This document shows positions 11,707-56,115 of a stretch of DNA of 64,000 nt, piece after piece (the first letter of the stretch is position 1; each line of letters starts with the position of its first letter). Source of the stretch: a virus (lineage: Duplodnaviria; Heunggongvirae; Uroviricota; Caudoviricetes); the IMG/VR virus record IMGVR_UViG_3300022561_001209; one strand, written 5' to 3'. Below the pieces are notes generated by a model, which worked only from the letters and a program-made list of their open reading frames with translations, was not told where the DNA came from and made no database searches. The translations under genes were made by a program, and so were the position numbers.

Positions 11707-11751
11707 CTCGTATTATTATAATGTCTTTTCTTTTTAAGTTTGCGAGAATTT

Positions 11752-11831
11752 TGAGAATGGCAGGAATTGAACCTACGTCAACTTCAACCCTATTGGAAGG
11801 TGAGTGCTCTACCAACTTGAGCTACATCCTC
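11752..11831 (-). tRNA. tRNA-like gene with canonical acceptor, D and T arms but a non-canonical anticodon arm (possible pseudo-tRNA; loop CTTCCAA/TTCCAAT)
   Basis: minus strand reads GAGGATG-TA-GCTCAAGTTGGTAGAGC-A-...-GTAGGTTCAATTCCTGC-CATTCTC-A. The 7-bp acceptor stem has one G-U pair. The anticodon stem pairs poorly and about 11 nt lie between the anticodon and T arms. Confidence 0.45.
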
Positions 11832-11988
11832 ATAGTTATACTTAATATTAAAACACACACTAAATTTTTTGAACACATTTAACATAATAAATCAATCACA
11901 CAATAGTAACATTCAGAACGATTAAAAAGTTAAATTTTAATAACAATTTAATTTCGTATTAATTGTTTTAATATTCAATTTGTACTGA

Positions 11989-12056
11989 ATTGTATGACTT
12001 CACTTATTTGTCAATTTAATTTTAATATACACTAAAAAGTATGACTCAATATAAAT
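11989..12056 (+). repeat. two copies of the TTGTA(C/T)TGAATTGTATGACTT iteron-like motif
   Basis: caatTTGTACTGAATTGTATGACTtcac and actaaaaaGTATGACTcaat; same motif as the 8-copy array at 14895-15614. Confidence 0.6.
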
Positions 12057-12061
12057 TTTAA

Positions 12062-12089
12062 ATAAAGAGACTTTTCAGTCTCTTTATTT
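12062..12089 (-). terminator. intrinsic terminator-like hairpin directly after the stop of ORF 12090-12449 (bidirectional A-run/T-run context)
   Basis: AAAGAGACT-TTTC-AGTCTCTTT; perfect 9-bp stem flanked by AATAAA and ATTTTT. Confidence 0.5.
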
Positions 12090-12449
12090 TTAAAGCTCTT
12101 CTATTACATATGCATCCTGTACTGATTCAAATTTGAATGAACGAAATTCATTTTTTTCTGTATCAAAACATCTAATAAGTCTATTATTCATATCTCTTAG
12201 CATTAAGTTCATATCTTCCTCGTCTTCATCATGGTGACCTGGTTTTGAAACACTTGCATTAGAATGTCTACTAATGTACGTATAATTGTTTGTACAATCC
12301 ATCAAACGATATTCACCGTTTTTCTTAACAAATTCTACATGAACCATATTTGATGCTAATGTAGTTTTTAATTCAAAATACATACTACCGTATTCATTGC
12401 TGTTTACTGGACAATCAGCTAATTCCTTTATTAATTCTAATAGTGACAT
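12090..12449 (-). CDS. hypothetical protein
   Basis: ORF 119 aa. Confidence 0.4.
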   Translation of the reverse strand: MSLLELIKELADCPVNSNEYGSMYFELKTTLASNMVHVEFVKKNGEYRLMDCTNNYTYISRHSNASVSKPGHHDEDEEDMNLMLRDMNNRLIRCFDTEKNEFRSFKFESVQDAYVIEEL

Positions 12450-12466
12450 TTTATTACCTCCGAATT

Positions 12467-13081
12467 TTAATCTAAATCTGAATTTTTACAACAATTGTTA
12501 CTTTCACAAAATAGTATGTCTAATAATTTCTTTTCGTTTTCATTACGAGGAAAATCTATTAAGAATTCCTTGTTATATAAACTGTTTAAAGCTATTTCAC
12601 TTATCGTAAATAATTTACTGTTATTGTATCCTAATTTTTTGAAATATAAAGGTTGCACTAGACTAGCCAAATATTTCTTAATGAATACAGTTCCATTTTT
12701 ATCGTTGTATTTATCTATCATTATTATTTTTCTTTGATTCTCTGATGAACTTGTCTTTACAAGAGATTCATCTATTATACATACAGTACCTTCAGTAAAT
12801 CTCTTCTTAAATAAACTTGTAAATTCTTCAAAAGTTTTAACGTTTGGCTGCAATAATAAGTTTTTATGAAATTCAACCTTGTTTCTATCTTTGTCATCTT
12901 CTATGTTTAAAGGTAGAATACCATGTTGCACTATAGCTTCTGCTAATTTCTCATGTGAATATTTTGGAATTACTGTTCCTGCAAAATCTACTTTGTAATC
13001 GTTTAATTCATTAGCTTTTAATACTATTTTGTCTATTACTCCTCTTGCTATTGTATATGAAAAATCTTTAGCTCTTATCAT
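12467..13081 (-). CDS. hypothetical protein
   Basis: ORF 204 aa, no recognisable motif. Confidence 0.4.
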   Translation of the reverse strand: MIRAKDFSYTIARGVIDKIVLKANELNDYKVDFAGTVIPKYSHEKLAEAIVQHGILPLNIEDDKDRNKVEFHKNLLLQPNVKTFEEFTSLFKKRFTEGTVCIIDESLVKTSSSENQRKIIMIDKYNDKNGTVFIKKYLASLVQPLYFKKLGYNNSKLFTISEIALNSLYNKEFLIDFPRNENEKKLLDILFCESNNCCKNSDLD

Positions 13082-13115: not shown

Positions 13116-13784
13116 TTATGCTTCTATTTTACAGAACTTTAAAATTTCCTCTCTTCTCTGTCTATCTGCTTCTGATAAATTGCCACTAGGTGTATTTAGT
13201 AAATAAGACACACAGGCTTTGTGTTCTTGTGGCATATTATCATATACGAACTTTTGTGAAGGTATACTAAATGAAACAATTCTATTTCTTAAACTTAAAA
13301 ATTCTTCTGTATTAATTTCAGGCAATTCTTCTTTTTTAAAATGTACATTTAAAATATCTACTGTAAATACTTTTCCAGGTAAACCTTTTAAATCAATTTC
13401 TCTTCTTTCAAGTGAGTCCATTACTATCAGTTCTACATTTTTAAAATATTCATGGTTAATATCTTTTTTATCTATGATTTCTTCCAATATATCCCCTTGA
13501 AATATTTCAGCTAATTTTTTACTGAAGTTATGAACTTCTGTTTTTATTGAACCAACGCTTAATTCGAACTTATCTGCTACATCGCTATAAGTATTGTCTG
13601 AGTTAAATACTTCTTTAACGTGCTCAGGTGTGAAATCCGTAAATCTTAATAATCTATACAAGTCCCAAAGAAATGGAATGTATTGATTATTTATTCCTGC
13701 AAATCTTAATCTTACATCGAATGATGTATAGTCTGTTGTGTAATCTACTAATTTTAGTAGTCTTGTTATGCTTCTTGTTTTCAT
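13116..13784 (-). CDS. hypothetical protein
   Basis: ORF 222 aa. Confidence 0.4.
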   Translation of the reverse strand: MKTRSITRLLKLVDYTTDYTSFDVRLRFAGINNQYIPFLWDLYRLLRFTDFTPEHVKEVFNSDNTYSDVADKFELSVGSIKTEVHNFSKKLAEIFQGDILEEIIDKKDINHEYFKNVELIVMDSLERREIDLKGLPGKVFTVDILNVHFKKEELPEINTEEFLSLRNRIVSFSIPSQKFVYDNMPQEHKACVSYLLNTPSGNLSEADRQRREEILKFCKIEA

Positions 13785-13865: not shown

Positions 13866-13950
13866 TGAAAGGTATAGGATTTGAACCTATGTAACTGTTA
13901 CATTAAACGGTTTACCAAACCGCCTCCTTAATCCTCTCGGACAACCTTCC
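13866..13950 (-). tRNA. class II tRNA (long variable arm, tRNA-Ser-like body) with apparent anticodon GGU
   Basis: GGAAGGT-TG-TCCGAGAGGATTAAGGAG-GCGGT-TTGGTAA-ACCGT-[16-nt variable arm TTAATGTAACAGTTAC]-ATAGG-TTCAAAT-CCTAT-ACCTTTC-A. CCA is not encoded. The D-arm and overall architecture resemble bacterial tRNA-Ser(GGA). Confidence 0.6.
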
Positions 13951-13993: not shown

Positions 13994-14446
13994 TTATCTT
14001 AGTATTTCTGCTACTATACTATTTACCAACTTACCATCAGCTTTTCCTTTTACTTTTGGCATTAATTCTTTCATTAGTCTACCTTTTTCTTTTCCTGATA
14101 TACTCTCTATTCCTAGTTCTAATATTGTTTCTTTTACTATAACTTCAATTTCTTCTCTTGTTAGTTGCTCTGGCAAATAATCTGTTAAAACTCCTATTTT
14201 TTTCTCTGTTTCTTCTGCTAAATCTGCTCTATTACCCTTTTTAAAGGCCTCTAATGAATCATTTTGCTGCTTGATTTCTTTTGCTATTATATCATATATA
14301 TCTTCATTTGTTAACTGTTCCTCAGTAATTTTTCTGTCCTTTGCTACATTTGCTATATTAGCTCTCACTATCTGTATAATATCTTTCTTGATTTTTGCTT
14401 TGTCTTTCATTGCTTGTTTATAATCATTTTGTAATATGTGTATCAT
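13994..14446 (-). CDS. yqeY: GatB/YqeY-domain protein
   Basis: 150-aa protein co-linear with B. subtilis YqeY: ...EAFKKGNRADLAEETEKKIGVLTDYLPEQLTREEIEVIV...MKELMPKVKGKADGKLVNSIV. Confidence 0.85.
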   Translation of the reverse strand: MIHILQNDYKQAMKDKAKIKKDIIQIVRANIANVAKDRKITEEQLTNEDIYDIIAKEIKQQNDSLEAFKKGNRADLAEETEKKIGVLTDYLPEQLTREEIEVIVKETILELGIESISGKEKGRLMKELMPKVKGKADGKLVNSIVAEILR

Positions 14447-14486: not shown

Positions 14487-14570
14487 TGGTGAATAGTGTT
14501 GGATTTTAACCAACGAACCCGAAGGAACTGATTTACAGTCAGTTTGCTTTAACCCTTTGCTTACCTATTC
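14487..14570 (-). tRNA. tRNA-Tyr (anticodon GUA), class II, CCA encoded
   Basis: GAATAGG-TA-...-ACTGA-CTGTAAA-TCAGT-[TCCTTCGGGTTC variable arm]-GTTGG-TTAAAAT-CCAAC-ACTATTC-A-CCA. Perfect anticodon stem; the D-arm is less canonical. Confidence 0.6.
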
Positions 14571-14807
14571 ATATTGTTTATTCAGCTGCTACTATATACT
14601 CTGCTTTTATGTTGTCTGTAATATCTTCTACTATATTAATCATAATTATACTCGTTTTCAAAGATGTTTAGTATCACATCATATTCCTTAGATTATAACT
14701 TCTTCTGCGTCTATTACTTTGTTAAAGTCTTTCTTTACTATATGCATCTTATTTCATCCTGCTGTCTTATTCAATTTATTAACTTTTCTCATCTTTAACT
14801 TAATATC

Positions 14808-14836
14808 ATTATATCATATCAAAAACTATTTGTCAA
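14808..14836 (-). promoter_or_regulatory. consensus sigma-A promoter (TTGACA-17-TATAAT) upstream of the tRNA-Tyr / yqeY region
   Basis: minus strand reads TTGACAAATAGTTTTTGATATGATATAAT; -35 at 14831-14836, -10 at 14808-14813; A-tract UP element beyond. Confidence 0.65.
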
Positions 14837-14894
14837 CTATTTTTAATTAAATTTTTTAACTTTTTTTAATAATAAAATTCCCAAAACTCAAAAG

Positions 14895-15614
14895 GTGTTG
14901 AAAAGTATGACTAAAAACCTTTTTTAAACCTTATCTTTAGTTTATAATACTAAAAAGTATTAAATTGTATGACTTTGAAACTTTTTATAAGACGTTTTTG
15001 TACCTTAAAAATTCAATTTGTATTGAAAAGTATGACTAAAGCTATTTTTTAATAATAAACTTTAACCTTTTTTAAGAATGACCCATTATAAATCTCAATT
15101 TTCAATACTTTTGGTAGCTTATTTCATATATTTTTAAAAAATATCCTAATTTTTATTTTAAAAACTAAAATTTAACTTTTTATAAACCCCTCATTTTTAA
15201 ATACGCAAATTACCTGTTTTAAGGCTATTTCTTTCAATTTTTAATATTTATTCCAAATTTTTGTTTGTTTTATTTATTCGTCAACACTATTATTTTTTAT
15301 TCTAATTGATTTCAAAATGTATTTAATTGTATGACAAACTTATTTATTCTAAATATTCATCTTAATGTTCATATTTTTTAAAATATATTGAATTGTATGA
15401 CTTCATTTTTAATACTCAATTAATTTCAAATTGTATTAAAATGTATGACTTCTTAACTTTTAATTTAAAATCTTTAATTTGTACCTAATTATAGTATATA
15501 TTATTTTATTCTTTTAAAAATTTAAAATGTATCAAATTGTAAGACTTAATAGCTACTTTATTAAATCTTCAACCTCTTATATAATAAAATTCACTTGTAT
15601 TAAAAAGTATGACT
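14895..15614 (+). repeat. array of 8 iteron-like direct repeats, consensus TTGTATTRAAWWGTATGACTT, in a 1.1-kb ORF-free AT-rich region
   Basis: the GTATGACT core starts at 14905, 14961, 15030, 15330, 15398, 15443, 15538 (GTAAGACT) and 15607. All copies have the same orientation. Each is followed 7-10 nt later by a TTTTTAAT-like element. Confidence 0.7.
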
Positions 15615-15641
15615 TAATAATACAGTGAATTTTATTTTACT

Positions 15642-16387: not shown

Positions 16388-17638
16388 TTAGGGATTACAT
16401 TTCCCACAAGGGTCATATCCTTGTGATGTTGCTTCGTCCCTTGTTTCAAAGTATATTCTATTTTTTGGGTCAGGCAATGAACTACAAGAATCTAAATGAA
16501 ACTTATGTGAATTTTTATTTCCTATATAAGTTGTCTCACTATTATTGTTTGTATTTACAACTTCCTTTGTAGGTAAAACACTTTCTTTAATTATTACAAC
16601 TTCTTCTTTAGTAATATTTTCTTGTTTTACTGTGCTCTTATTCTCTATAGCATTAACATTAAAAGTAATATCTCTTCCATCTCCTGTAGCTATTATTGTA
16701 CCTTGTGAATCTGTCCTAAATACTTCTATATTTCTAGATTCAAGTCTATCTAATATTTCATTCGATGGATGTCCGTATTTATTATCTTTCCCTACTGATA
16801 TAACAGCATACTCTGGATTAACTTTATTTAAGAAATTTTCTGATGTTGATGTATCACTTCCATGATGCCCTAGTTTTAATACATCTGCTGATACATCTAT
16901 ATCATTTCCTAAAATCTCATGCTCAGGTAAAAACTCATTGTCTCCCATAAATACAAATTTATTATCTCCGTAAACTATCTTTAATGCTACAGAATAATTA
17001 TTTAAATCCTTATATTCTGAATCGTTAGGCGACAATATTGTACATTCTGCCTCACCTAATTTAAATGTATTTCCAACTTTAGGCGAAGTTACTTTTAATC
17101 CCTTATTACTAATTGCATTAATTACATCCTCATATGTCTCAGTAGTACTCAATGTTTTTGGCATTATTATATTTTCTACTTTTATATTATTTATTACATC
17201 ATCTAATCCGCCTATATGGTCTTCGTGAGGATGTGTTCCTATTACATATTCTAAATCTTCTATACCTAGATTATTTATATAATTAACTACTAAATCACCA
17301 TCACCATTGTTTCCTGCATCTATCAGTAATTCGTTATCACCTTGTTTTACTAATATCGAATCTGCTTGGCCTACATCTATAAAGTGTACTTCTATATTTC
17401 CTTTTATCTTACTTACTTCTTCTACTGTAGTTTCTTCTACTGTAGTTTCTGCTACAACCATATTTTCTTCTTCTACATGTATAACTTCTTTATTTACATT
17501 AGGCTGTTCTTTTGATTCAGAACAACCTACTGATATTATCATTACTATTAATAGTAATACACTTATTAATTTATACTGCCTTTTCGACTTTAGTTTCATT
17601 GCATACCTCCGGACTTGCCAATAATTTATTGTCTTCAT
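16388..17638 (-). CDS. secreted metallo-beta-lactamase-fold hydrolase (ComEC C-terminal-like) with C-terminal Ada-type zinc-binding domain
   Basis: signal/TM (LISVLLLIVMIISVGC). MBL motifs HFIDVGQADS, HPHEDHIGG and LKLGHHGSDTS. The C-terminus (KFHLDSCSSLP...GYDPCGKCNP) matches the Ada_Zn_binding pattern. The start is probably an internal Met, since the ORF overlaps the ftsH stop. Confidence 0.75.
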   Translation of the reverse strand: MKTINYWQVRRYAMKLKSKRQYKLISVLLLIVMIISVGCSESKEQPNVNKEVIHVEEENMVVAETTVEETTVEEVSKIKGNIEVHFIDVGQADSILVKQGDNELLIDAGNNGDGDLVVNYINNLGIEDLEYVIGTHPHEDHIGGLDDVINNIKVENIIMPKTLSTTETYEDVINAISNKGLKVTSPKVGNTFKLGEAECTILSPNDSEYKDLNNYSVALKIVYGDNKFVFMGDNEFLPEHEILGNDIDVSADVLKLGHHGSDTSTSENFLNKVNPEYAVISVGKDNKYGHPSNEILDRLESRNIEVFRTDSQGTIIATGDGRDITFNVNAIENKSTVKQENITKEEVVIIKESVLPTKEVVNTNNNSETTYIGNKNSHKFHLDSCSSLPDPKNRIYFETRDEATSQGYDPCGKCNP

Positions 17639-19385
17639 AAATTATTCTGTCAAGGTCATCTCCAGTTAATGTTTCTTTTTCAAGAAGTTCTTTTGCTATT
17701 ATTTTAAGTTTATCTATATTCTTAGTCATTAACTCCAGTGTTTCATTATACAATTTATTTGACAACTCCACAGCTTCGTCAATATAAGTTTCTTTCTTTA
17801 CATCTGCAATTATCAGCATCCCATACTTTTTACTCATCCCATAAATATTAAATAAGTTATCTATATCTTGAGTAGCTTTCTTTATATCTTGAGATGCACC
17901 AGTAGTTATAAGGTCTTCGTCTCCTCTTAATAAGAATTCTCCAACTCTTCCTGCATAACTTACTTTTATGTCGTTCATTATATCTCTCTTCGTAAATAAT
18001 CCCATTTTTTTAGGAATATTAAACGTTACACCGCCTGCACCACTTGTTGATGGTATTATAGTTACCTTATGAACGTCATTTTCTGTAAGTAATTTAGCCG
18101 TCAATGCGTGAGCTGCTTCATGGTAAGCTACTAACTCAAGGTCATCTTTATTTACTTCTTTTCTATTTTTCTTCTTATCTCCTTGCATTAACATTCTGAA
18201 ATAAGCATCGTCAATTTCTTCTTTACCTACTATTTTCTTATCTCTATTAACTGTTAATATTGTAGCTTCGTTTAGCAATGTTTCAATGTCTGCCCCACTA
18301 AATCCTATTGTTATTTTAGCTAACTCTTCTAAAGATATCTCAGAAGATAATCTCTTATTCTTAACGTAAATATCTATTAACTCTTTTCTATCTTCTAAAT
18401 CAGGTAATCCTATAGCAATCTTTCTATCAAATCTTCCAGACCTTGTTAACGCTGGGTCTAAACTATCTAATCTATTTGTAGCTGCTATTACTATTATCCC
18501 TGTATTATTTTTGAAACCATCCATAGCATCAAGTAATGCGTTTATTGTTTGGTCTTTTTCTGAGTTGTTACTTGTACCCCTTATACTTCCGATAGCATCT
18601 ATTTCATCTATAAATACTATACAAGGTGCGTTCTTCTTAGCTTTTTCGAATAATGTTCTTACTCTTCTTGCTCCCACACCTACGTACATTTCTATAAAGT
18701 CTGAACCACTTGCACTAAAGAATGGTACTCCTGCTTCTCCTGCTATTGCCTTAGCTGTAAGTGTTTTTCCAGTTCCTGGAGGTCCATAAAACAAAATCCC
18801 CTTAGTTATTCTTGCTCCCATATCACCATATTTCTTAGGTTGTTTTAAGAATTTTACTAGAAATTCAACATCTTCTTTTGACTCTCTGTTTCCTGCTATG
18901 TCTTTAAATTTTATGTCAGGAATATCTGTCTTATTTTCCTTCTGCTCTGTAATAGCTGCTGAAGGTGTTATTTTCTTAAAAAGTACCGAAAATAATATCA
19001 GCATTATTGCTAATTGTCCTACCATCAATATTATACTTAAGAATGATGATTGTACATTATCTGTTACTTCTTCTACCGATGCATTATTATCCAGTAAATA
19101 TTTTTTAAATCCCTCTACTCTAGGATTATCTGTATAAAATGTATTTCCATCTTTATCTAAATATGTGAATGTACTGCTACTGAAATTTATATATACTCTG
19201 TCTATTTTATTAGATTCAAGTTGTTTCGTAAATTCAGCATATTGTACTCTATCCGTATTATTTATACTTGTGCTGTTATTTTTCCCCGAGCCATCTGCTA
19301 CATATGCTAAAAACATAATTATTATTATTATTATAACATATGTAACTTCTTTACTAGGTTTAAATTTATCCCAACTACTTTTCAA
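17571..19385 (-). CDS. ftsH: FtsH-family membrane-anchored ATP-dependent zinc metalloprotease
   Basis: two TM helices flank an extracytoplasmic domain. Walker A GPPGTGKT, Walker B IVFIDEIDA, SRH TNRLDSLDPALTRSGRFDR, HEAAH zinc site. Confidence 0.9.
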   Translation of the reverse strand: MKSSWDKFKPSKEVTYVIIIIIIMFLAYVADGSGKNNSTSINNTDRVQYAEFTKQLESNKIDRVYINFSSSTFTYLDKDGNTFYTDNPRVEGFKKYLLDNNASVEEVTDNVQSSFLSIILMVGQLAIMLILFSVLFKKITPSAAITEQKENKTDIPDIKFKDIAGNRESKEDVEFLVKFLKQPKKYGDMGARITKGILFYGPPGTGKTLTAKAIAGEAGVPFFSASGSDFIEMYVGVGARRVRTLFEKAKKNAPCIVFIDEIDAIGSIRGTSNNSEKDQTINALLDAMDGFKNNTGIIVIAATNRLDSLDPALTRSGRFDRKIAIGLPDLEDRKELIDIYVKNKRLSSEISLEELAKITIGFSGADIETLLNEATILTVNRDKKIVGKEEIDDAYFRMLMQGDKKKNRKEVNKDDLELVAYHEAAHALTAKLLTENDVHKVTIIPSTSGAGGVTFNIPKKMGLFTKRDIMNDIKVSYAGRVGEFLLRGDEDLITTGASQDIKKATQDIDNLFNIYGMSKKYGMLIIADVKKETYIDEAVELSNKLYNETLELMTKNIDKLKIIAKELLEKETLTGDDLDRIIYEDNKLLASPEVCNETKVEKAV

Positions 19386-21520: not shown

Positions 21521-21553
21521 ATAAAAATACCATGTCTAAGTATTGACATGGTA
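21520..21553 (-). terminator. intrinsic terminator-like hairpin after the methyltransferase gene
   Basis: TACCATGTC-n8-GACATGGTA stem followed on the minus strand by TTTTTAT. Confidence 0.5.
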
Positions 21554-21568
21554 TTTATGCACCTTATT

Positions 21569-22744
21569 TTATAGTGAACCAGGCACGAAGTTAATCCATA
21601 AATACTCTTCTTTAAAATCCTTCTTCTCACCTTTTTCTGTTCTCTGACAAGATAGTGCGAAATCATCTAATTTTACTTTAGCATATGGTTTATCTTCCCC
21701 TACAACCCCTTTAGTTTCAGGTAAAAATCTTGTTGCATTATCCAAAGGATTATAAATCTCATGGTTATATCCAGACAATATGTATTTACCTTGTATCTTC
21801 TGTAATTGGTCTACTAGTTTAACGTGCATACCATCTGCAAACTCGTACATATAAGCTTCTCTAGCTGATTCTCCTCTAGTATCATGTATATATGGAGGGT
21901 CAATATAAAACAATGTATCAGGACTATCATATTTCTCGATTACATATTCATAACTCATGTTCTCTATCGTTATGCTTCTGAATCTCTCAATTACTCTTGG
22001 CAATCCATCTTCAATTCCGTTTAGCCACCTTTTCATTGCTGGACTCAATGTTCCACTTTTTACTGATTTATCACTTTTCCAAGATTCCAAACCTGCTGAG
22101 AATGACTGTTGACATAATATGTAAAACATTCTTGCTGTTTCAATTTGTACTCTATCTTTTTCACCTGTAAGTTCATTTAATTTAACATCATAATCTTGTC
22201 TTACTTCGCCTGACTTACTCTTCTCCAGTTTTTCTTTAAGTTCTAACTCTTTCTTATCTAATTTCTCGATTGCCTTATGGTAATCCTCAGCTACTGTTTT
22301 ACCACTATCTAAGTCTTCTTTTAACTTATTTTTCTTATCTGAAATTTGAGTTATCTCAATCATAAATTTACCATCATCTATGAATTTATCGTTGTACTCA
22401 TTCTGCAACTTGATAATTTCATCATCTATTGCCGTTATTCCTTTATCCCAGTTTAACTTAGCATAGTTAAATTCATCTCTTCCATAAAGTGTTAATTGTA
22501 GTTGTTCTAGTAATTCTTTTGAACGTTTAGCATCTCTCAATACTGAGAACAAAGATACTAGTCCTTTATTAATATCATTGTAAACTTCTAATTTATCTCT
22601 TTTCTTGTTTAATATTACGTGTGCCCCACCACCAAATACTTCCACGTAATTAGTATATCTTGTTGACTCTATCAGACCTATGATTTGCTTAGCCATTTTA
22701 GCTTTTCCACCATACCACCCGATTGCACTTATTTGACTTGCCAT
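21569..22744 (-). CDS. dam: DNA N6-adenine methyltransferase (Dam family) with large internal coiled-coil insertion
   Basis: N-terminal AdoMet motif WYGGKAKMAKQI and catalytic DPPY (LFYIDPPYIHD). Confidence 0.85.
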   Translation of the reverse strand: MASQISAIGWYGGKAKMAKQIIGLIESTRYTNYVEVFGGGAHVILNKKRDKLEVYNDINKGLVSLFSVLRDAKRSKELLEQLQLTLYGRDEFNYAKLNWDKGITAIDDEIIKLQNEYNDKFIDDGKFMIEITQISDKKNKLKEDLDSGKTVAEDYHKAIEKLDKKELELKEKLEKSKSGEVRQDYDVKLNELTGEKDRVQIETARMFYILCQQSFSAGLESWKSDKSVKSGTLSPAMKRWLNGIEDGLPRVIERFRSITIENMSYEYVIEKYDSPDTLFYIDPPYIHDTRGESAREAYMYEFADGMHVKLVDQLQKIQGKYILSGYNHEIYNPLDNATRFLPETKGVVGEDKPYAKVKLDDFALSCQRTEKGEKKDFKEEYLWINFVPGSL

Positions 22745-31261: not shown

Positions 31262-32731
31262 TTATTTATATGTGTCTTCCCCTAATGTTGGGGGTGTTTC
31301 TGCTACTTCCACCTTTTGTACAGGTTTATTTTCAGTTATGTTACGTAAATAACTTGCTATGTCTACTCCTGTCAAATCATTCAACATTTGAAATCCGTTA
31401 GCTGCTACATCAGTTACTATCTTACTAACTTTAGACGCTCCACCGTTTCCGTTAGAACCACCGTTATCAATAACAGTAATCTTTTCAATTTGTTCCATAG
31501 GTTTAGCTACTTCTCTCATTATTTCAGGTAATCTAGCCACTACTAAATCAACTATAGCTGCTTGGCCATATTTAGCCATTGCTTCTGCCATCTTATCTTT
31601 AGCTTCTGCCTCTGCTAAACCTTTTGCCCTTATCGCATCAGCTTCTGCGTTACCTCTTATTCTAACAGATTCAGCTTCTGCAAGTGCTTTAACTCTTACT
31701 GTTTCTGCTTCTGCCTCTGCTTGTAAAATAGCTGTTCTTTTATCAGCTTCAGCCTTAACTTCTGCTTCATATCTTTTAGCATCTGCAGGTTTCTTAACTT
31801 CTGCTACAAGTCTTTCCTCTACTACTACAGCATTTTTCTTAGCTAATTCTGCCTGCTGTTCTGCCATCAGTTTTTCATTCTCTACGTCTCTTAATTTATA
31901 TGACATATCTGCATCAGCTTTTGCTTTATCTTGTTCTGCTCTGTATGCCTCTACTTTTAATGACTTATCTTTTTCTGATTCAGCTATTGCCGATTCAGAC
32001 TCTAATCTTGCTTTCTGACCTATTCTTATTGCTTCAGCTGTTTTTATCTCTGTGTCTCTTTTTCTTTCAGCTGTAGCTATATCAGCATCTGACTTAGCTT
32101 GGGCTATCTGAGGAATTGCCCTATTCTCTAAGTAACCACCTTGAGTAGCTATTTTCAATATTGTATAAGATACTAATTGTAAACCCATTGAGTCTAATTC
32201 AGCCCGTATATCTGCCTCTATTCTTTGTTCAAATTGTGCTCTATCATTATTTATTTCTTCTACTGTTAATGTAGATACAATACCCCTTAATTTACCTTCT
32301 AATATTTGTTCTACAATACTTTTAATTACATCAGATGTACTTCTTTTAGAACTTTCACTACAGAACTGTTCTACTGCTGTCAGTACACTTTTTTCTTCGT
32401 TTCTAACCTTAATTACTGCCGTTCCTATAATATTTACAAATATACCTTGTTTAGATGGTGCTTCTGTAATATCTGTTGTCATTGACATATTCTCTAATGA
32501 AATGACGCAGCTTGTCTCAAAGAATGGAATCATTAATCCACCTTTACCACTTAAAACTCTTTTCTTTAAACCTGTAATTACCATTGCTTTATCAGCAGGT
32601 ACTTTCTTCCAAAATAGTGTAATAATCACTACCAATGCAATAACAATAAGTGTTATTGGTGAAAATATTGAATCTAGAATTGCAACCATAATCTTTTTCC
32701 TCTTTTTCTCTTTTATTTTATATTTAAACAC
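31262..32731 (-). CDS. flotillin / SPFH (band 7) family membrane protein
   Basis: N-terminal TM; SPFH core; long A/E-rich flotillin repeats (AEAEAETVRVKALAEAESVRIRGNAEADAIRAKGLAEAEAKDKMAEAMA); then IVDLVVARLPEIMREVAKPM. Confidence 0.8.
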   Translation of the reverse strand: MFKYKIKEKKRKKIMVAILDSIFSPITLIVIALVVIITLFWKKVPADKAMVITGLKKRVLSGKGGLMIPFFETSCVISLENMSMTTDITEAPSKQGIFVNIIGTAVIKVRNEEKSVLTAVEQFCSESSKRSTSDVIKSIVEQILEGKLRGIVSTLTVEEINNDRAQFEQRIEADIRAELDSMGLQLVSYTILKIATQGGYLENRAIPQIAQAKSDADIATAERKRDTEIKTAEAIRIGQKARLESESAIAESEKDKSLKVEAYRAEQDKAKADADMSYKLRDVENEKLMAEQQAELAKKNAVVVEERLVAEVKKPADAKRYEAEVKAEADKRTAILQAEAEAETVRVKALAEAESVRIRGNAEADAIRAKGLAEAEAKDKMAEAMAKYGQAAIVDLVVARLPEIMREVAKPMEQIEKITVIDNGGSNGNGGASKVSKIVTDVAANGFQMLNDLTGVDIASYLRNITENKPVQKVEVAETPPTLGEDTYK

Positions 32732-39090: not shown

Positions 39091-39125
39091 TATTAAAAAA
39101 TCATACATATTAAAATGTATGATTT
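39091..39125 (-). terminator. intrinsic terminator: 11-bp stem AAATCATACAT / ATGTATGATTT, 6-nt loop, then TTTTTT
   Basis: immediately after the stop of ORF 39140-39994; the stem contains the GTATGA half-site of the iteron motif. Confidence 0.65.
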
Positions 39126-39139
39126 AATTTTAGTTGTAT

Positions 39140-39994
39140 TTAATTAGCCTGCTCTTGTGCTTTCCTATAATTGTTATATTCATTTAATTCTTTTATCAAT
39201 TTTTTTGTGAATTCACTTGTTTCTTTTTCTTCTGTTTTACTTTCTTCTACAACTATATCTTCAGTTTCCCTGCCTTCTTCAGTTACATCAGTTTCAGTTA
39301 CAGGTTTATTTTTCATAAACACCTGTTTCTCAAAAGGAAATTCTGTAATATATCCTTCATTATTTACAAAATCTTTTATATAATTTATCAAATACTGTGA
39401 TAAAGTTATATCAGGTTTTTCTTCTTTATATTTAATTGTCTGTTTTTCTAATGCTAATTTTAAGTTTTCATGTGCCTTTCTATCAAACTCTTTGTAACTA
39501 ATATCTGTACTTCTTAAAGCACTAAATAAATCTCTTCTACTTTCATCAGTAATTTTCCATTTTCCATTAGTTTTTTCTAAACTAACTGTTAAATTAGTTT
39601 TCTTACTGCTGCCTAAGTTCTTTTTAGTTATATTCACGTATATATTATGACTATCCGGTAAATTTACTATTTCATTACTTACTACAGCTAGTCTTTCTAT
39701 AAATGTGTGATACATAATAAGTTCGTAAGTTAATTTTGTATTATCTATTCCTGTTACTTCTAATTCAACTGATGCCTTATTATTATTCACTTCTATATCT
39801 TTTATACTGTGTTTTACAGCCTCTTTTTCTACCATATCGAGCTCCTTATTACCCAATACTTGTTCTAAATTATTAAAGTAATCTTCTACAACTTCCCTTA
39901 CTCCTATCTGTTCTCCAGTAAATGTTCCTCCATAAATTGTGTATGCTGTCAATATAAAACATAATATCATAAATAAAACAAGTGGCTTTGTCAT
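39140..39994 (-). CDS. membrane-anchored/secreted hypothetical protein
   Basis: N-terminal hydrophobic helix, 284 aa; flanked by its own terminator. Confidence 0.45.
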   Translation of the reverse strand: MTKPLVLFMILCFILTAYTIYGGTFTGEQIGVREVVEDYFNNLEQVLGNKELDMVEKEAVKHSIKDIEVNNNKASVELEVTGIDNTKLTYELIMYHTFIERLAVVSNEIVNLPDSHNIYVNITKKNLGSSKKTNLTVSLEKTNGKWKITDESRRDLFSALRSTDISYKEFDRKAHENLKLALEKQTIKYKEEKPDITLSQYLINYIKDFVNNEGYITEFPFEKQVFMKNKPVTETDVTEEGRETEDIVVEESKTEEKETSEFTKKLIKELNEYNNYRKAQEQAN

Positions 39995-40068: not shown

Positions 40069-40102
40069 AATGAAAAAATCATACATATTAATATGTATGA
40101 TT
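40069..40102 (-). terminator. intrinsic terminator, identical 11-bp stem AAATCATACAT / ATGTATGATTT
   Basis: perfect palindrome AAATCATACATATTAATATGTATGATTT followed on the minus strand by TTTTTTC; directly after the stop of ORF 40112-40486. Confidence 0.65.
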
Positions 40103-40111
40103 TAAGTACGT

Positions 40112-53717: not shown

Positions 53718-54929
53718 TTAAATTTTTAATGTAGTATGCAATCCCCAAGGTGGTATTTGTGTTTCATTAATTACTACCCATAAAACAGGAATACCATTAG
53801 TTACTCTTTCATCAGGCCAATGTGCATACCCGTCTGTTAAAAATACTATTCCAGTTACATCTTCTCTTTCAAAGTGTTCATTAGTGTACTCGAATGGTTT
53901 ATCAAAATTTGTCCCACCACCACCTTGTGGCTTAATTTTTAATACATCAGTTACTCCCTCAAATTCTGTAGGTTCATAAGCAATACCATCGAAAAATCCT
54001 ATGTATCCAGTTAATTTATCTGCAAACTGATTAACTGCTCCCACTATCTCACTATAAAATGTATTTAATTCCTTATCTCCTATTGAACCACTAGTGTCTA
54101 CCCAAAATAACATCTTCTTAACACTTATACTTTCACCATTAAAATCAGGTAAGAAAAAATCACTTTCACTAAATCTTCTGTCTGGAGGATTAAATGAGTA
54201 GTCATCTATTTCAGGCTGAACAAACTCTGCAAGTAGACTTCTCCAATCTCTTTGAGGTTTAGTTATTTTACCCACTAATCTTTTTAAAAATGCAGGTAGT
54301 TTACCCCTACCCTCTGCCGCTTGAGCCGCACTTACTAGTCTACCACCCCAATCAGTCTCAATACCCTTACCAACTGCATCTCCCCACCTACTATGGTCAT
54401 CCAGTATTCCCAATTTAGATAATAAACTATCAGGTACTAAATCGTAAATTTCTTCAGCGCCCTTGTCTTTATATTTAATATCGTATAATATGCCTTTTGG
54501 CATTTCTAATACACTCTTTTTCTTATCTTTGTTATTTCTATTTATTGTTCTTTCTTTATCTTTATCCATATTTTCTTTGTATTGTGTCATTATATCATGT
54601 ATTGCATAATCACATGCTACATTCCATTTTTCATGTAGTCTATCACCTTTTCTAAATAAGTGTTTTAAAGCAGGGTGCATTACTTCGTGCACTATTACCC
54701 AATTTACTTCTCCCTCGCTCATGTTTTCTATGAAATAAGGATTGTAATATATTTTCTTACCGTCTGTAGCTGCTGTATTTATTGTATAATCTACTTCCAT
54801 TTCTAAACTTAAGATTAGAATTCCGAAGAATGGCATACTCATTAGCATTTGTACTCTTGCTCTAGTTACCTTATCCTTTACCTTATCTTCCCTATCTTTA
54901 CTCATTTCCTTATATATATTTAACGTCAT
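53718..54929 (-). CDS. vWA-domain protein with N-terminal putative zinc-metallopeptidase (HExxH) domain; partner of the MoxR ATPase (DUF2201-type architecture)
   Basis: HExxH in NWVIVHEVMHPALKH; C-terminal vWA with MIDAS LFWVDTSGSIGD ... FFDG ... GGGGTNF. Confidence 0.7.
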   Translation of the reverse strand: MTLNIYKEMSKDREDKVKDKVTRARVQMLMSMPFFGILILSLEMEVDYTINTAATDGKKIYYNPYFIENMSEGEVNWVIVHEVMHPALKHLFRKGDRLHEKWNVACDYAIHDIMTQYKENMDKDKERTINRNNKDKKKSVLEMPKGILYDIKYKDKGAEEIYDLVPDSLLSKLGILDDHSRWGDAVGKGIETDWGGRLVSAAQAAEGRGKLPAFLKRLVGKITKPQRDWRSLLAEFVQPEIDDYSFNPPDRRFSESDFFLPDFNGESISVKKMLFWVDTSGSIGDKELNTFYSEIVGAVNQFADKLTGYIGFFDGIAYEPTEFEGVTDVLKIKPQGGGGTNFDKPFEYTNEHFEREDVTGIVFLTDGYAHWPDERVTNGIPVLWVVINETQIPPWGLHTTLKI

Positions 54930-55044
54930 AAACTACACCTAAACCCTTTCATTTCAATTTTAATAAACATTTATAATAGAATATATATAGATATATACTC
55001 ATATATATCCTATTAATCCCTTAAAACTCATTTAAATCCCTGTA

Positions 55045-56115
55045 TTACATTATAAATCCTCTGTATTTCTTAATACCTTGTATCCATTCAGGCATTACCT
55101 GTATTTTCTTTCTTAAACTTTCTATTACTGCAATATCTCTTATAGTTAATGTAGCAAACTCTGCAGGCATTTCCAATATAAAGTTTATTATATTTTTAAG
55201 TTCAGTTTCTTTAGCTTTCTGTACATTTGCAGATAATGTTGAAGATAAAGCATATAGTATACTAGGCTCACTAGGCATTTCTACCTTTTTCCCGTCCATT
55301 ATATCTTTAATACTAGGTAACTTATCATATACCTTAGTATAAGCTCTAAACTCTGTAGCCGCCCCTAATCCTATAGAACCTGCTATTAATGGGAATGCTT
55401 TTTCTATACTTCCTATTTGTTTTATATATGTATCGACCATTTCCCAACTTCTTGGTGTTGGATAAGCTACGTCATCATTACTAGGGTCAAATTGAAATAG
55501 TGAACTATTCTTAAAGTTTACATAACCTATAATTGTACTATCTATTCCATGAGGTATTGCCCATTTCTTCCAGTCATCGACATCGCATACCATTTCAATA
55601 TGTGTCATTCTATTCGCAAGTGCCTTAGGCATTTTATAGCTTACACTCTTATCTGTAACTCTATTTCCTGCCGCAACTACTATACAGTTATCAGGTAATT
55701 TATGTTCCCCTATTATCCTATCTAGTGTAATCTGATATGCTGCCGCTTGAACACTTAATGGAGCTGCACTTATTTCATCTAATATTAATATGTTTATAAC
55801 ATCTTCACTTGAGTTCATTTGAAATATTTGAGGTTTTAACCAAATAGCCAATTCTTTTTTAGCATCTGCTACAGGTATTCCTCGTAAATCAACAGGATTA
55901 AATAATAGTAATCTAACATCTGTAATAACTACATTTTTTCTAGCTAAATTTTCTAATTTTATAGCTATCTCTCTAAAACTTTGTGATTTACCAATTCCTG
56001 GAGGTCCCCATATCATTAAACTTGGTACTTTTTTAGGACTTGTCTTTGCGTACAAAGGAGTCATCAAATCTACCATATCGTTAATATTCATTTGCATTAT
56101 GTTCATATTTGCCAT
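55045..56115 (-). CDS. MoxR-family AAA+ ATPase (AAA_5; CbbQ/NorQ-like)
   Basis: Walker A IWGPPGIGKSQ, Walker B ILILDEIS, sensor VVAAGNR; 356 aa single AAA module with C-terminal helical domain. Confidence 0.8.
   Translation of the reverse strand: MANMNIMQMNINDMVDLMTPLYAKTSPKKVPSLMIWGPPGIGKSQSFREIAIKLENLARKNVVITDVRLLLFNPVDLRGIPVADAKKELAIWLKPQIFQMNSSEDVINILILDEISAAPLSVQAAAYQITLDRIIGEHKLPDNCIVVAAGNRVTDKSVSYKMPKALANRMTHIEMVCDVDDWKKWAIPHGIDSTIIGYVNFKNSSLFQFDPSNDDVAYPTPRSWEMVDTYIKQIGSIEKAFPLIAGSIGLGAATEFRAYTKVYDKLPSIKDIMDGKKVEMPSEPSILYALSSTLSANVQKAKETELKNIINFILEMPAEFATLTIRDIAVIESLRKKIQVMPEWIQGIKKYRGFIM

Follow-up and report, generated by a model that had tools for sequence, protein, structure and literature searches.

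What does an array of same-orientation repeats do in the longest non-coding stretch of a large phage genome? The question is raised by a 64,000-nucleotide piece of viral DNA (Caudoviricetes; IMG/VR record IMGVR_UViG_3300022561_001209), the whole of which is referred to here as the window. Copies of a bipartite motif, GTAT-N6-GTATGAC, are found there upstream of an operon that includes the gene orf222. With moderate confidence, we read the repeats as sites bound by a protein that recognises their sequence, most probably the orf222 product, with a role that is probably regulatory. This reading is carried by the motif, its clustering and conservation, the adjoining promoter, and the presence of GTATGA-type arrays alongside orf222 homologues, each of which was observed directly.

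The repeat array

Matches to the pattern GTATNNNNNNGTATGAC (GTAT-N6-GTATGAC) with no more than one mismatch were counted over the 64 kb, giving 11 where 1.13 were expected and where the highest count in 100 shuffles was five. Eight of these fall within 14895-15613 and one at 11982, all on the + strand, opposite to the − strand genes, as a preliminary description of the window had it. Successive array copies are 62, 63, 299, 66, 48, 96 and 68 bp apart, which agrees with the irregular spacing of 47-300 bp given there. A 29-bp position weight matrix (PWM) built from the copies was also run across 83.5 kb (the window and 10 kb of each flank), where scores of ≥30 bits were confined to the array and the distal sites, that is, to the two flanks of the orf222 operon; shuffled sequence gave 0-1 PWM matches at ≥12 bits. 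Nine sites, one of them decayed, make up the array and two more lie beyond the operon, every one in the + orientation (Table 1).

Judged by information content, the conserved unit spans ~28 bp (aaaTTyAAawT-GTATTrAAww-GTATGAC-T) and so is longer than first claimed, although the GTAT-N6-GTATGAC core itself stands. Beyond positions −21 to +7 of the copies, information does not exceed 0.44 bit per position, and a weak T-run is seen downstream at +15 to +19. A TTTTTAAT-like −10 element had been proposed downstream of the copies; with this little information, in spacers that are 57% identical to those of a relative (L125, see below), the proposal was not borne out. Reading each copy as a − strand sigma-70 promoter, with TACWWT as its −10, was likewise rejected, there being no consistent −35 and 9/12 matches in only three copies. 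Judged by eye, the motif matches neither the IHF nor the Fis consensus. The region described as free of open reading frames (ORFs), 14575-15641, is so for about 14840-15641 (~800 bp); 14575-14800 is a transcribed leader, which on the − strand has a coding-like composition and short ORFs of 12, 19 and 21-27 amino acids (aa).

Two further repeats were noted in the same area. A perfect 17-nt inverted match, TAAAAAGTTAAATTTTA, joins 11923-11939 at the distal locus with 15166-15182 in the array centre. The sequence AAAAGTTAA occurs eight times on the window's − strand, four of them inside 14787-15461, and may be a second motif; repeats of the comparable AAAAGTT type are those carried by one orf222 homologue (L189, see below).

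Copy 8 forms the loop and inner stem of the terminator-like hairpin that follows the neighbouring gene orf143, and near-consensus copies occupy two further terminator stems, as had been noticed from their GTATGA cores (39096-39124 at 18.3 bits and 40074-40102 at 12.6 bits). These two AT-rich hairpins (39096-39128 and 40074-40105) are near-identical and border a single gene, 39140-39994, after which comes a consensus promoter; the gene resembles an inserted promoter-gene-terminator cassette, with the motif copies in its hairpin stems. A general link between motif and terminators is ruled out by terminators at 21525, 47757 and 49599, which have no motif.

The copies within RNA hairpins (copy 8 and those at 39096 and 40074), periods of 62-68 bp that recall CRISPR, and a − strand fold z-score of −2.7 would fit a role at the RNA level, as a non-coding transcript that sequesters a protein (a CsrB-like sponge) or as a degenerate CRISPR-like or ToxI-like repeat RNA. 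We give this explanation hardly any weight: an Rfam match was absent even at E ≤1, the repeats are degenerate and irregular in period, no cas or toxN genes were found, and the same core forms promoter-adjacent DNA repeats beside orf222 homologues. Nor did pattern scans of public collections turn up anything but tandem repeats and CRISPR arrays, none of them related. When IMG/VR was scanned for the single motif, only isolated chance matches came up, and two- and three-copy scans of IMG/VR, metagenome contigs and GTDB genomes gave unrelated tandem repeats and Bacteroidales CRISPR arrays, while the window's own contig was missed as well. Bacteroidales CRISPR repeats ending in GGTATGACAAC match the multi-copy pattern by chance and are unrelated, as are the coincidental matches in Bacteroidales/Prevotellaceae CRISPR arrays with the repeat end GGAAGGGTATGACAAC (L149, L152, L161, L163, L166 and L176-L178).

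Conservation of the motif

The 143-aa protein encoded by orf143 has one diverged homologue (68% aa identity), on the 1.9-kb Logan contig L125. This contig carries a nine-copy array, an identical type of consensus promoter and a matching hairpin round its last copy. A search for related loci with the 416-aa neighbouring protein gave none, and in blastn of the array region against 50,697 phage records the tRNA was the sole match. Between window and L125, identity is 80.9% at motif positions, 78.9% in the promoter and UP-like tract, 72.8% in the neighbouring gene (nucleotides), 62.2% in the central motif-free segment and 57.2% in the spacers. Distances between copies (window/L125) are 62/63, 63/63, 299/277, 66/66, 48/48 and 68/67 bp, with the window's 96-bp interval equal to 48 + 48. 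The distal pair is kept in the related contigs L180 and L179, and L180 has no flanking tRNA-Gly gene. Because the motif is more conserved than the spacers, and the distal pair is kept without tRNA-Gly, selection therefore targets the motif itself and neither the surrounding sequence nor an association with the tRNA.

The preliminary description had placed two copies beside a tRNA-like gene at 11989-12056; the copies are there (11982 and 12029-12045), but the tRNA call lies at 11751-11832. This Gly(TCC)-called tRNA (− strand, 82 nt) has a badly paired anticodon stem and is not found at the matching site of L180. It may be a pseudogene, may contain an intron or may have been mis-assigned.

Position of the array relative to the orf222 operon

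Read along the − strand, the locus begins with orf143, the hairpin with copy 8, the rest of the distal cluster and a 260-bp motif-free AT-rich segment. Three copies 62-63 bp apart follow, and then an A/T-rich UP-like tract, the promoter and a 230-nt leader. The operon after the leader consists of tRNA-Tyr, yqeY, a class II tRNA (GGT), orf222, orf204 and orf119, and is closed by a terminator and the two distal motif copies. The array is thus placed between the terminator after orf143 and the perfect promoter of the operon; this promoter and tRNA-Tyr had been named correctly as flanking features. From the cores of the three proximal copies to the centre of the −35 hexamer, the distances are 74.5, 136.5 and 199.5 bp, or 7.1, 13.0 and 19.0 helical turns, and in L125 the same distances are 73.5, 136.5 and 199.5 bp. 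Only these three are in phase with the promoter. The distal cluster of six sites, 500-780 bp upstream of the −35 hexamer, is out of helical phase with it. None of the other seven perfect promoters in the window has such an array.

The Thr(GGT)-called tRNA of this operon (13866-13950) is 85 nt long and has a long stem-loop variable arm, that is, a class II body like those of Ser, Leu or Tyr tRNAs. Should charging follow the body and not the anticodon, the tRNA would misread ACC/ACU codons.

The same layout raises the main alternative, and a serious one, that the locus is an iteron-type replication origin. In this case orf222 would initiate replication with orf204 as a loader-like partner, the AT-rich 260-bp centre would melt, the strong promoter would supply transcriptional activation, and the distal copies would be a control locus like P4 crr or incA. 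The repeats of ~28 bp do share one orientation and lie in clusters of three and six that border the 18.5% GC centre. Repeats stand on both sides of the putative binder's gene, as in P1 incC-repA-incA, and the neighbours include genes of DNA metabolism (sliding clamp, Dam-type methylases, AP endonuclease and SbcC-like ATPase). An origin is nevertheless unlikely in our estimate. Copies are unevenly spaced, at 48-96 and 299 bp rather than the ~21-23 bp of iterons, and most are out of helical phase. No DnaA box (TTATCCACA, ≤1 mismatch) was found between 11425 and 21738, and cumulative GC skew, which had been put forward as a check, passes straight through the region with no inflection. AT-richness is equalled or exceeded in other intergenic regions, the lowest 250-bp window of the array having 14% GC and that of another intergenic region (35285) 10.8%, and the centre is poorly conserved (62%). 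The origin suggested in the preliminary description has therefore gained no positive support.

The orf222 and orf204 proteins

For the favoured reading, in which the repeats are operators, the candidate binder is the 222-aa protein orf222, where YSDVADKFELSVGSIKTEVHNFSKKL reads as a helix-turn-helix (HTH) of the sigma-region-4/LuxR type. An AlphaFold model based on a four-sequence alignment (predicted local distance difference test, pLDDT, 80) is all-helical, with two domains and a low-confidence linker; Foldseek of the model against PDB and viral models gave no full-length match. HMMER searches of 1.84 billion representatives recovered 51 family proteins, nearly all of 215-240 aa and aligning end to end. 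The family profile matches GerE (E = 0.0013), 11 of 48 members weakly match Sigma70_r4_2, and no other family is matched consistently. Public data contain ~50 representative clusters of the family, which has no Pfam, PHROG or NCBIfam name; no match to orf222 was obtained by tblastn among phages or plasmids. Because aligning the N-terminal and C-terminal halves of orf222 with each other in hhalign revealed no internal duplication, a monomer with two HTHs is unlikely.

In orf204, a Walker A motif was not seen by eye and there is no tubulin or actin signature, nor any family or PDB match; its single-sequence structure (pLDDT 32) was unusable. Neither orf222 nor orf204 nor orf119 has a Rep, O or DnaD match in Pfam, PHROG or NCBIfam, and PADLOC matched none of the operon proteins to a defence system. 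These results also bear against the origin described above, since the HTH is of a kind typical of transcription factors and orf204 shows no NTPase motif.

The resemblance of the orf222 HTH to sigma domain 4, closer than to any other, would suit a + strand promoter array for a phage sigma-like factor or phage polymerase, with orf222 as its sigma-4 module. The ~28-bp motif is comparable in length to phage-polymerase promoters, and the T-run at +15 to +19 could be counted with it. We regard such an array as very improbable. There is no conserved −10, the spacers being only 57% identical, and there are no + strand genes over 83 kb to be transcribed. The other operon starts all lack the motif and have perfect sigma-70-type promoters, and in one homologous locus (L184, see below) three copies at 12-bp spacing are too tight for one promoter each. 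Nor is orf222 itself a sigma-70 family sigma factor: its region-4-like HTH is N-terminal, and a region-2 domain was not detected. The promoter array for a non-sigma-A polymerase proposed earlier does not fit these observations.

A direct-repeat array with a small DNA-binding gene and a partner gene also resembles parC-parMR or tubC-tubRZ, and relatives of window proteins occur in Clostridium phage c-st and a Clostridioides plasmid-like phage record. On this view the array would nucleate a complex, like parC/tubC or cosB/pac, for segregation or packaging. This is improbable, given that orf204 has no Walker motif and no tubulin or actin signature, that terminase or structural genes stand near the module in none of six contexts, and that the genome seems lytic. 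The packaging site mentioned in the preliminary description is accordingly left without support, with no terminase near the array or near the homologues.

Homologues of orf222 and their upstream repeats

The reading of the repeats as orf222 operators was compared with contigs of five further lineages (L181-183, L184, L185, L188 and L189). The orf222-orf204 pair was found again in five other contigs, L179, L184, L185, L188 and L189, with the orf204 homologue downstream of the orf222 homologue. The intergenic regions ahead of the homologue measure 402 bp in L184, 473 bp in L188 and at least 583 bp in L189, and all three contain repeated A-rich GT motifs adjoining a sigma-70-type promoter. In L184 (43% identity to orf222), GTATGA occurs seven times forward and once in reverse within the 402 bp, and not at all in the remainder of the 2-kb contig; 0.26 forward copies were expected (P = 1.3e-8). 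Three of its copies, in tandem at 12-bp spacing, stand directly against TTGACG-17-TGgTATAAT. In L188 (38%), GTATGA, AAGTATA and AAGTTGA repeats reach the −35 hexamer, and in L189 (39%), AAAAGTT occurs seven times round the promoter (P = 4.6e-8). In a Sedimentibacter metagenome-assembled genome (MAG) and related contigs (L181-183, 64%), a single GTATGAC stands just upstream of the ribosome-binding site; the sequence there, after what is probably the −10 (by eye), reads AAAGTATGAC.

The recognition helix VHNFSKK is identical in the GTATGA-using proteins of the window, L181 and L184 (P0006, P0007). Elsewhere, VHDLSKR accompanies AAAAGTT and VHNFSRK is mixed, a comparison that covers five lineages only. 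Operator-like sites adjoin the promoter of the binder's operon in the window, L184, L188 and L189. The ancestral layout was likely [repeat array + promoter]-orf222-orf204, and two tRNAs and yqeY likely came to stand between promoter and orf222 in the window's lineage.

Note also what surrounds these homologues. The L181-L183 protein, encoded on Sedimentibacter MAG contig JAWQJF010000147 and related contigs, is the closest cellular homologue of orf222 and has no orf204 partner; its gene lies between a serine resolvase and a tyrosine integrase, beside a type I restriction-modification specificity gene. Such neighbours point to a small integrated element and give a hint of the host group of the phage. 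In the phage-like contigs L185 and L188, orf222-orf204 stands beside one or two Dam-type (MethyltransfD12) methylase genes, and the window has a Dam-type methylase at 21569-22744, 8 kb from the pair.

Proposed role of the array

That the repeats are sites for a protein recognising GTATGA-containing sequence was already part of the preliminary description and is supported here; the candidate added to it is orf222. We infer both this binder and the direction and purpose of its action from sequence comparison. The two GTAT-containing sub-sites of a copy, one helical turn apart, would suit head-to-tail binding on one face of the DNA. By occupying the sites, orf222 may feed back on its own promoter, and in several lineages the array adjoins the promoter from which the binder's own operon is read, which points to feedback control. 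It may also bridge or loop both flanks of the operon, or act as a roadblock that insulates the operon from read-through out of upstream genes. The outcome would be the timing or level set for the tRNA and for the orf222-orf204 unit.

Several observations weigh against operators for orf222. The link between protein and motif is one of co-occurrence alone, and L185 (40% identity) has no clear array. GTATGA in L184 lies mostly in the gene's direction, whereas all window copies are opposite to it. No window site overlaps the promoter, the nearest being 59 bp upstream of the −35 hexamer, and nine sites over 720 bp are far above the need of simple autoregulation. Structure and family comparisons gave no recognisable function for orf204 or the C-terminal half of orf222. 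Finally, the intergenic regions upstream of the homologues are long in every case (300-580 bp), and AT-rich and repeat-rich, which is also compatible with an origin-plus-initiator cassette.

The size of the array, the second cluster past the terminator and the hairpin copies at 15597, 39096 and 40074 suggest a role beyond simple autoregulation. It is conceivable, though we doubt it, that orf222-orf204 and the arrays together are a cis/trans module, not described before, that is shared by phages and integrated elements of anaerobic Firmicutes. In it the sigma-4-type HTH protein would gather on many oriented sites and do more than autoregulation, either as a new phage origin with its initiator or as a protein-DNA insulator that splits the one-directional genome into temporal transcription units. 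The array itself is real and under selection, akin to operator or iteron arrays of already known kinds, and has a plausible cognate protein from an unnamed family.

A predicted target sequence gives a testable function to an unnamed protein family with a conserved partner gene, and the array picks out the chief control region, cis-regulatory or replicative, of a large phage that is almost wholly unannotated. If the array insulates or activates the tRNA operon, it would show how genes are timed in a one-directional genome with host-type consensus promoters; as an origin, it would bring with it a new type of initiator.

The phage genome and neighbouring genes

The window has 28% GC and all its plausible genes are on the − strand; no + strand gene was found in 83 kb. 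Its sequence is identical to the 114-kb Logan contig SRR5829598_4783, and its overlap with the 144-kb JGI contig 3300009774, Ga0123339_10000028, is identical as well. Because the latter stops within the window and a second JGI contig carries on, the genome exceeds 144 kb; its JGI contigs are Ga0123339_10000028 and Ga0123339_10001792. Perfect TTGACA-17-TATAAT promoters number eight, all on the − strand, intergenic, at operon starts and facing genes, and five of the eight have the extended −10 TG. From this strikingly idealised, host-type set it follows that the phage uses a host-type RNA polymerase. One-directional, with consensus early promoters and many tRNAs, the genome looks lytic.

Named proteins of the window include a sliding clamp, a Dam-type methylase and an AP endonuclease for DNA metabolism, an SbcC-like ATPase being among the DNA-metabolic neighbours of the array. 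Also named are an FtsH-like protease, an Apyc1-like MBL hydrolase, a flotillin-like protein, a MoxR/VWA pair and a cell-wall hydrolase, and a 684-aa protein is common to many large phages. Pfam and PHROG scans of 63 small window ORFs yielded nothing usable, with no Pfam match, almost none in PHROGs, and no sigma factor, RNA polymerase, Rep, ParA/ParB or terminase; ~90% of the phage's small ORFs are without match. A Sedimentibacter MAG holds the closest cellular homologue of one window gene, and some window proteins have the relatives in Clostridium phage c-st and the Clostridioides plasmid-like record mentioned above. The phage is large and poorly known, and its host is probably an anaerobic Firmicute.

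Cargo that is unusual for a phage is encoded at 16388-19385, 31262-32731 and 53718-56115. It comprises the Apyc1-like MBL hydrolase (a match to the anti-Pycsar family), a full FtsH-like AAA protease, the flotillin/SPFH protein and a MoxR AAA ATPase with a DUF2201/VWA partner. In the window's flanks are genes for a CCA-adding enzyme and NrdD.

Table 1. Sites and genes of the array locus and related features, in window coordinates
Feature	Position	Strand	Remarks
Motif copy 1, GTGTTGAAAAGTATGAC	14895-14911	+	32.6 bits; proximal cluster; kept in L125
Motif copy 2, GTATTAAATTGTATGAC	14957-14973	+	30.6 bits; kept in L125
Motif copy 3, GTATTGAAAAGTATGAC	15020-15036	+	35.3 bits; kept in L125
Motif-free centre	15041-15299	.	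18.5% GC; between proximal (3) and distal (6) clusters; 277 bp in L125
Motif copy 4, GTATTTAATTGTATGAC	15319-15335	+	30.4 bits
Motif copy 5, ATATTGAATTGTATGAC	15385-15401	+	30.6 bits
Motif copy 6, GTATTAAAATGTATGAC	15433-15449	+	35.9 bits
Decayed ninth array copy, GTACCTAATTATAGTAT	15481-15497	+	revealed only by alignment to the intact L125 copy GTATTGAATTGTATGAC
Motif copy 7, GTATCAAATTGTAAGAC	15529-15545	+	33.1 bits
Motif copy 8, GTATTAAAAAGTATGAC	15597-15613	+	within hairpin 15586-15633; found by pattern and PWM
Terminator-like hairpin after orf143	15586-15633	−	AAAATTCACT-t-GTATTA / 15-nt loop / TAATAC-AGTGAATTTT and U-run; L125 nearly identical
A/T-rich UP-element-like tract, upstream of −35	14837-14883	−	with promoter, 79% identical to L125
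Perfect sigma-70-type promoter, TTGACA-17-TGnTATAAT	14808-14836	−	12/12 with TG; faces tRNA-Tyr; kept in L125
tRNA-Tyr(GTA)	14487-14570	−	first operon gene
YqeY/GatB-like protein	13994-14446	−
Class II tRNA	13866-13950	−	anticodon GGT
orf222	13116-13784	−	candidate motif-binding protein; sigma-region-4/LuxR-type HTH at residues ~35-97
orf204	12467-13081	−	conserved partner of orf222; no recognisable fold
orf119	12090-12449	−	WYL_2 (Sm-like SH3) domain protein; last operon gene
Terminator hairpin after orf119	12063-12085	−
Distal copy B, ACACTAAAAAGTATGAC	12029-12045	+	21.8 bits; half-degenerate (GTATGAC at 12039); kept in L180, L179
Distal copy A, GTACTGAATTGTATGAC	11982-11998	+	34.6 bits; kept in L180
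Near-consensus copy, terminator stem, ATATTAAAATGTATGAT	39096-39124	+	18.3 bits; possible auxiliary site
Weaker near-consensus copy, duplicate terminator stem	40074-40102	+	12.6 bits
−35 hexamer starts of the eight perfect promoters	57128, 51352, 49543, 47719, 39063, 35342, 14836, 8585	−

Comparison with known systems

Phage T5 has a non-coding repeat region in its terminal repeat, the 'injection stop signal' region. Like T5, the present phage is large, has tRNA genes and contains a repeat-filled non-coding region of at least 1 kb; unlike in T5, nothing places the array near a genome end, and there is no similarity in sequence or gene content. The C1 repressor of phage P1 acts at many dispersed, asymmetric 17-bp operators. 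The sites described here are likewise asymmetric and oriented, belong to a presumed phage regulator and occur at more than one locus, but they are clustered rather than dispersed and the proteins are unrelated.

Iteron origins may be flanked by control loci, as in P1 incC-repA-incA and in phage P4, where ori and crr are bound by alpha. The window differs in having no Rep-family protein, no DnaA boxes that could be found and long, irregular spacing, and initiation here is hypothetical. It shares with them same-orientation repeats on both sides of the presumed binder's gene, AT-rich sequence between the clusters and, some kilobases off, a further small cluster. Fis binds upstream activating sites at rRNA and tRNA promoters such as rrnB P1 and tyrT. 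Here the motif departs from the Fis consensus, the factor is probably phage-encoded and six distal sites are out of phase; in common are three phased sites (7, 13 and 19 turns) above a strong promoter with a UP-like tract, and a tRNA-Tyr as the first gene.

Direct repeats one helical turn apart, bound head to tail, are known for lambda CII (TTGC-N6-TTGC), the pho boxes of PhoB and the 0A boxes of Spo0A. Unlike those, the present array has 9 + 2 sites, over 720 bp and 2.9 kb, the nearest of them 59 bp from the −35; the fold of orf222 outside the HTH matches nothing known, and its binding is predicted. Shared with them are the two similar cores in direct orientation 10 bp apart, the position of the sites upstream of a sigma-70-type promoter, and a candidate binder with an HTH.

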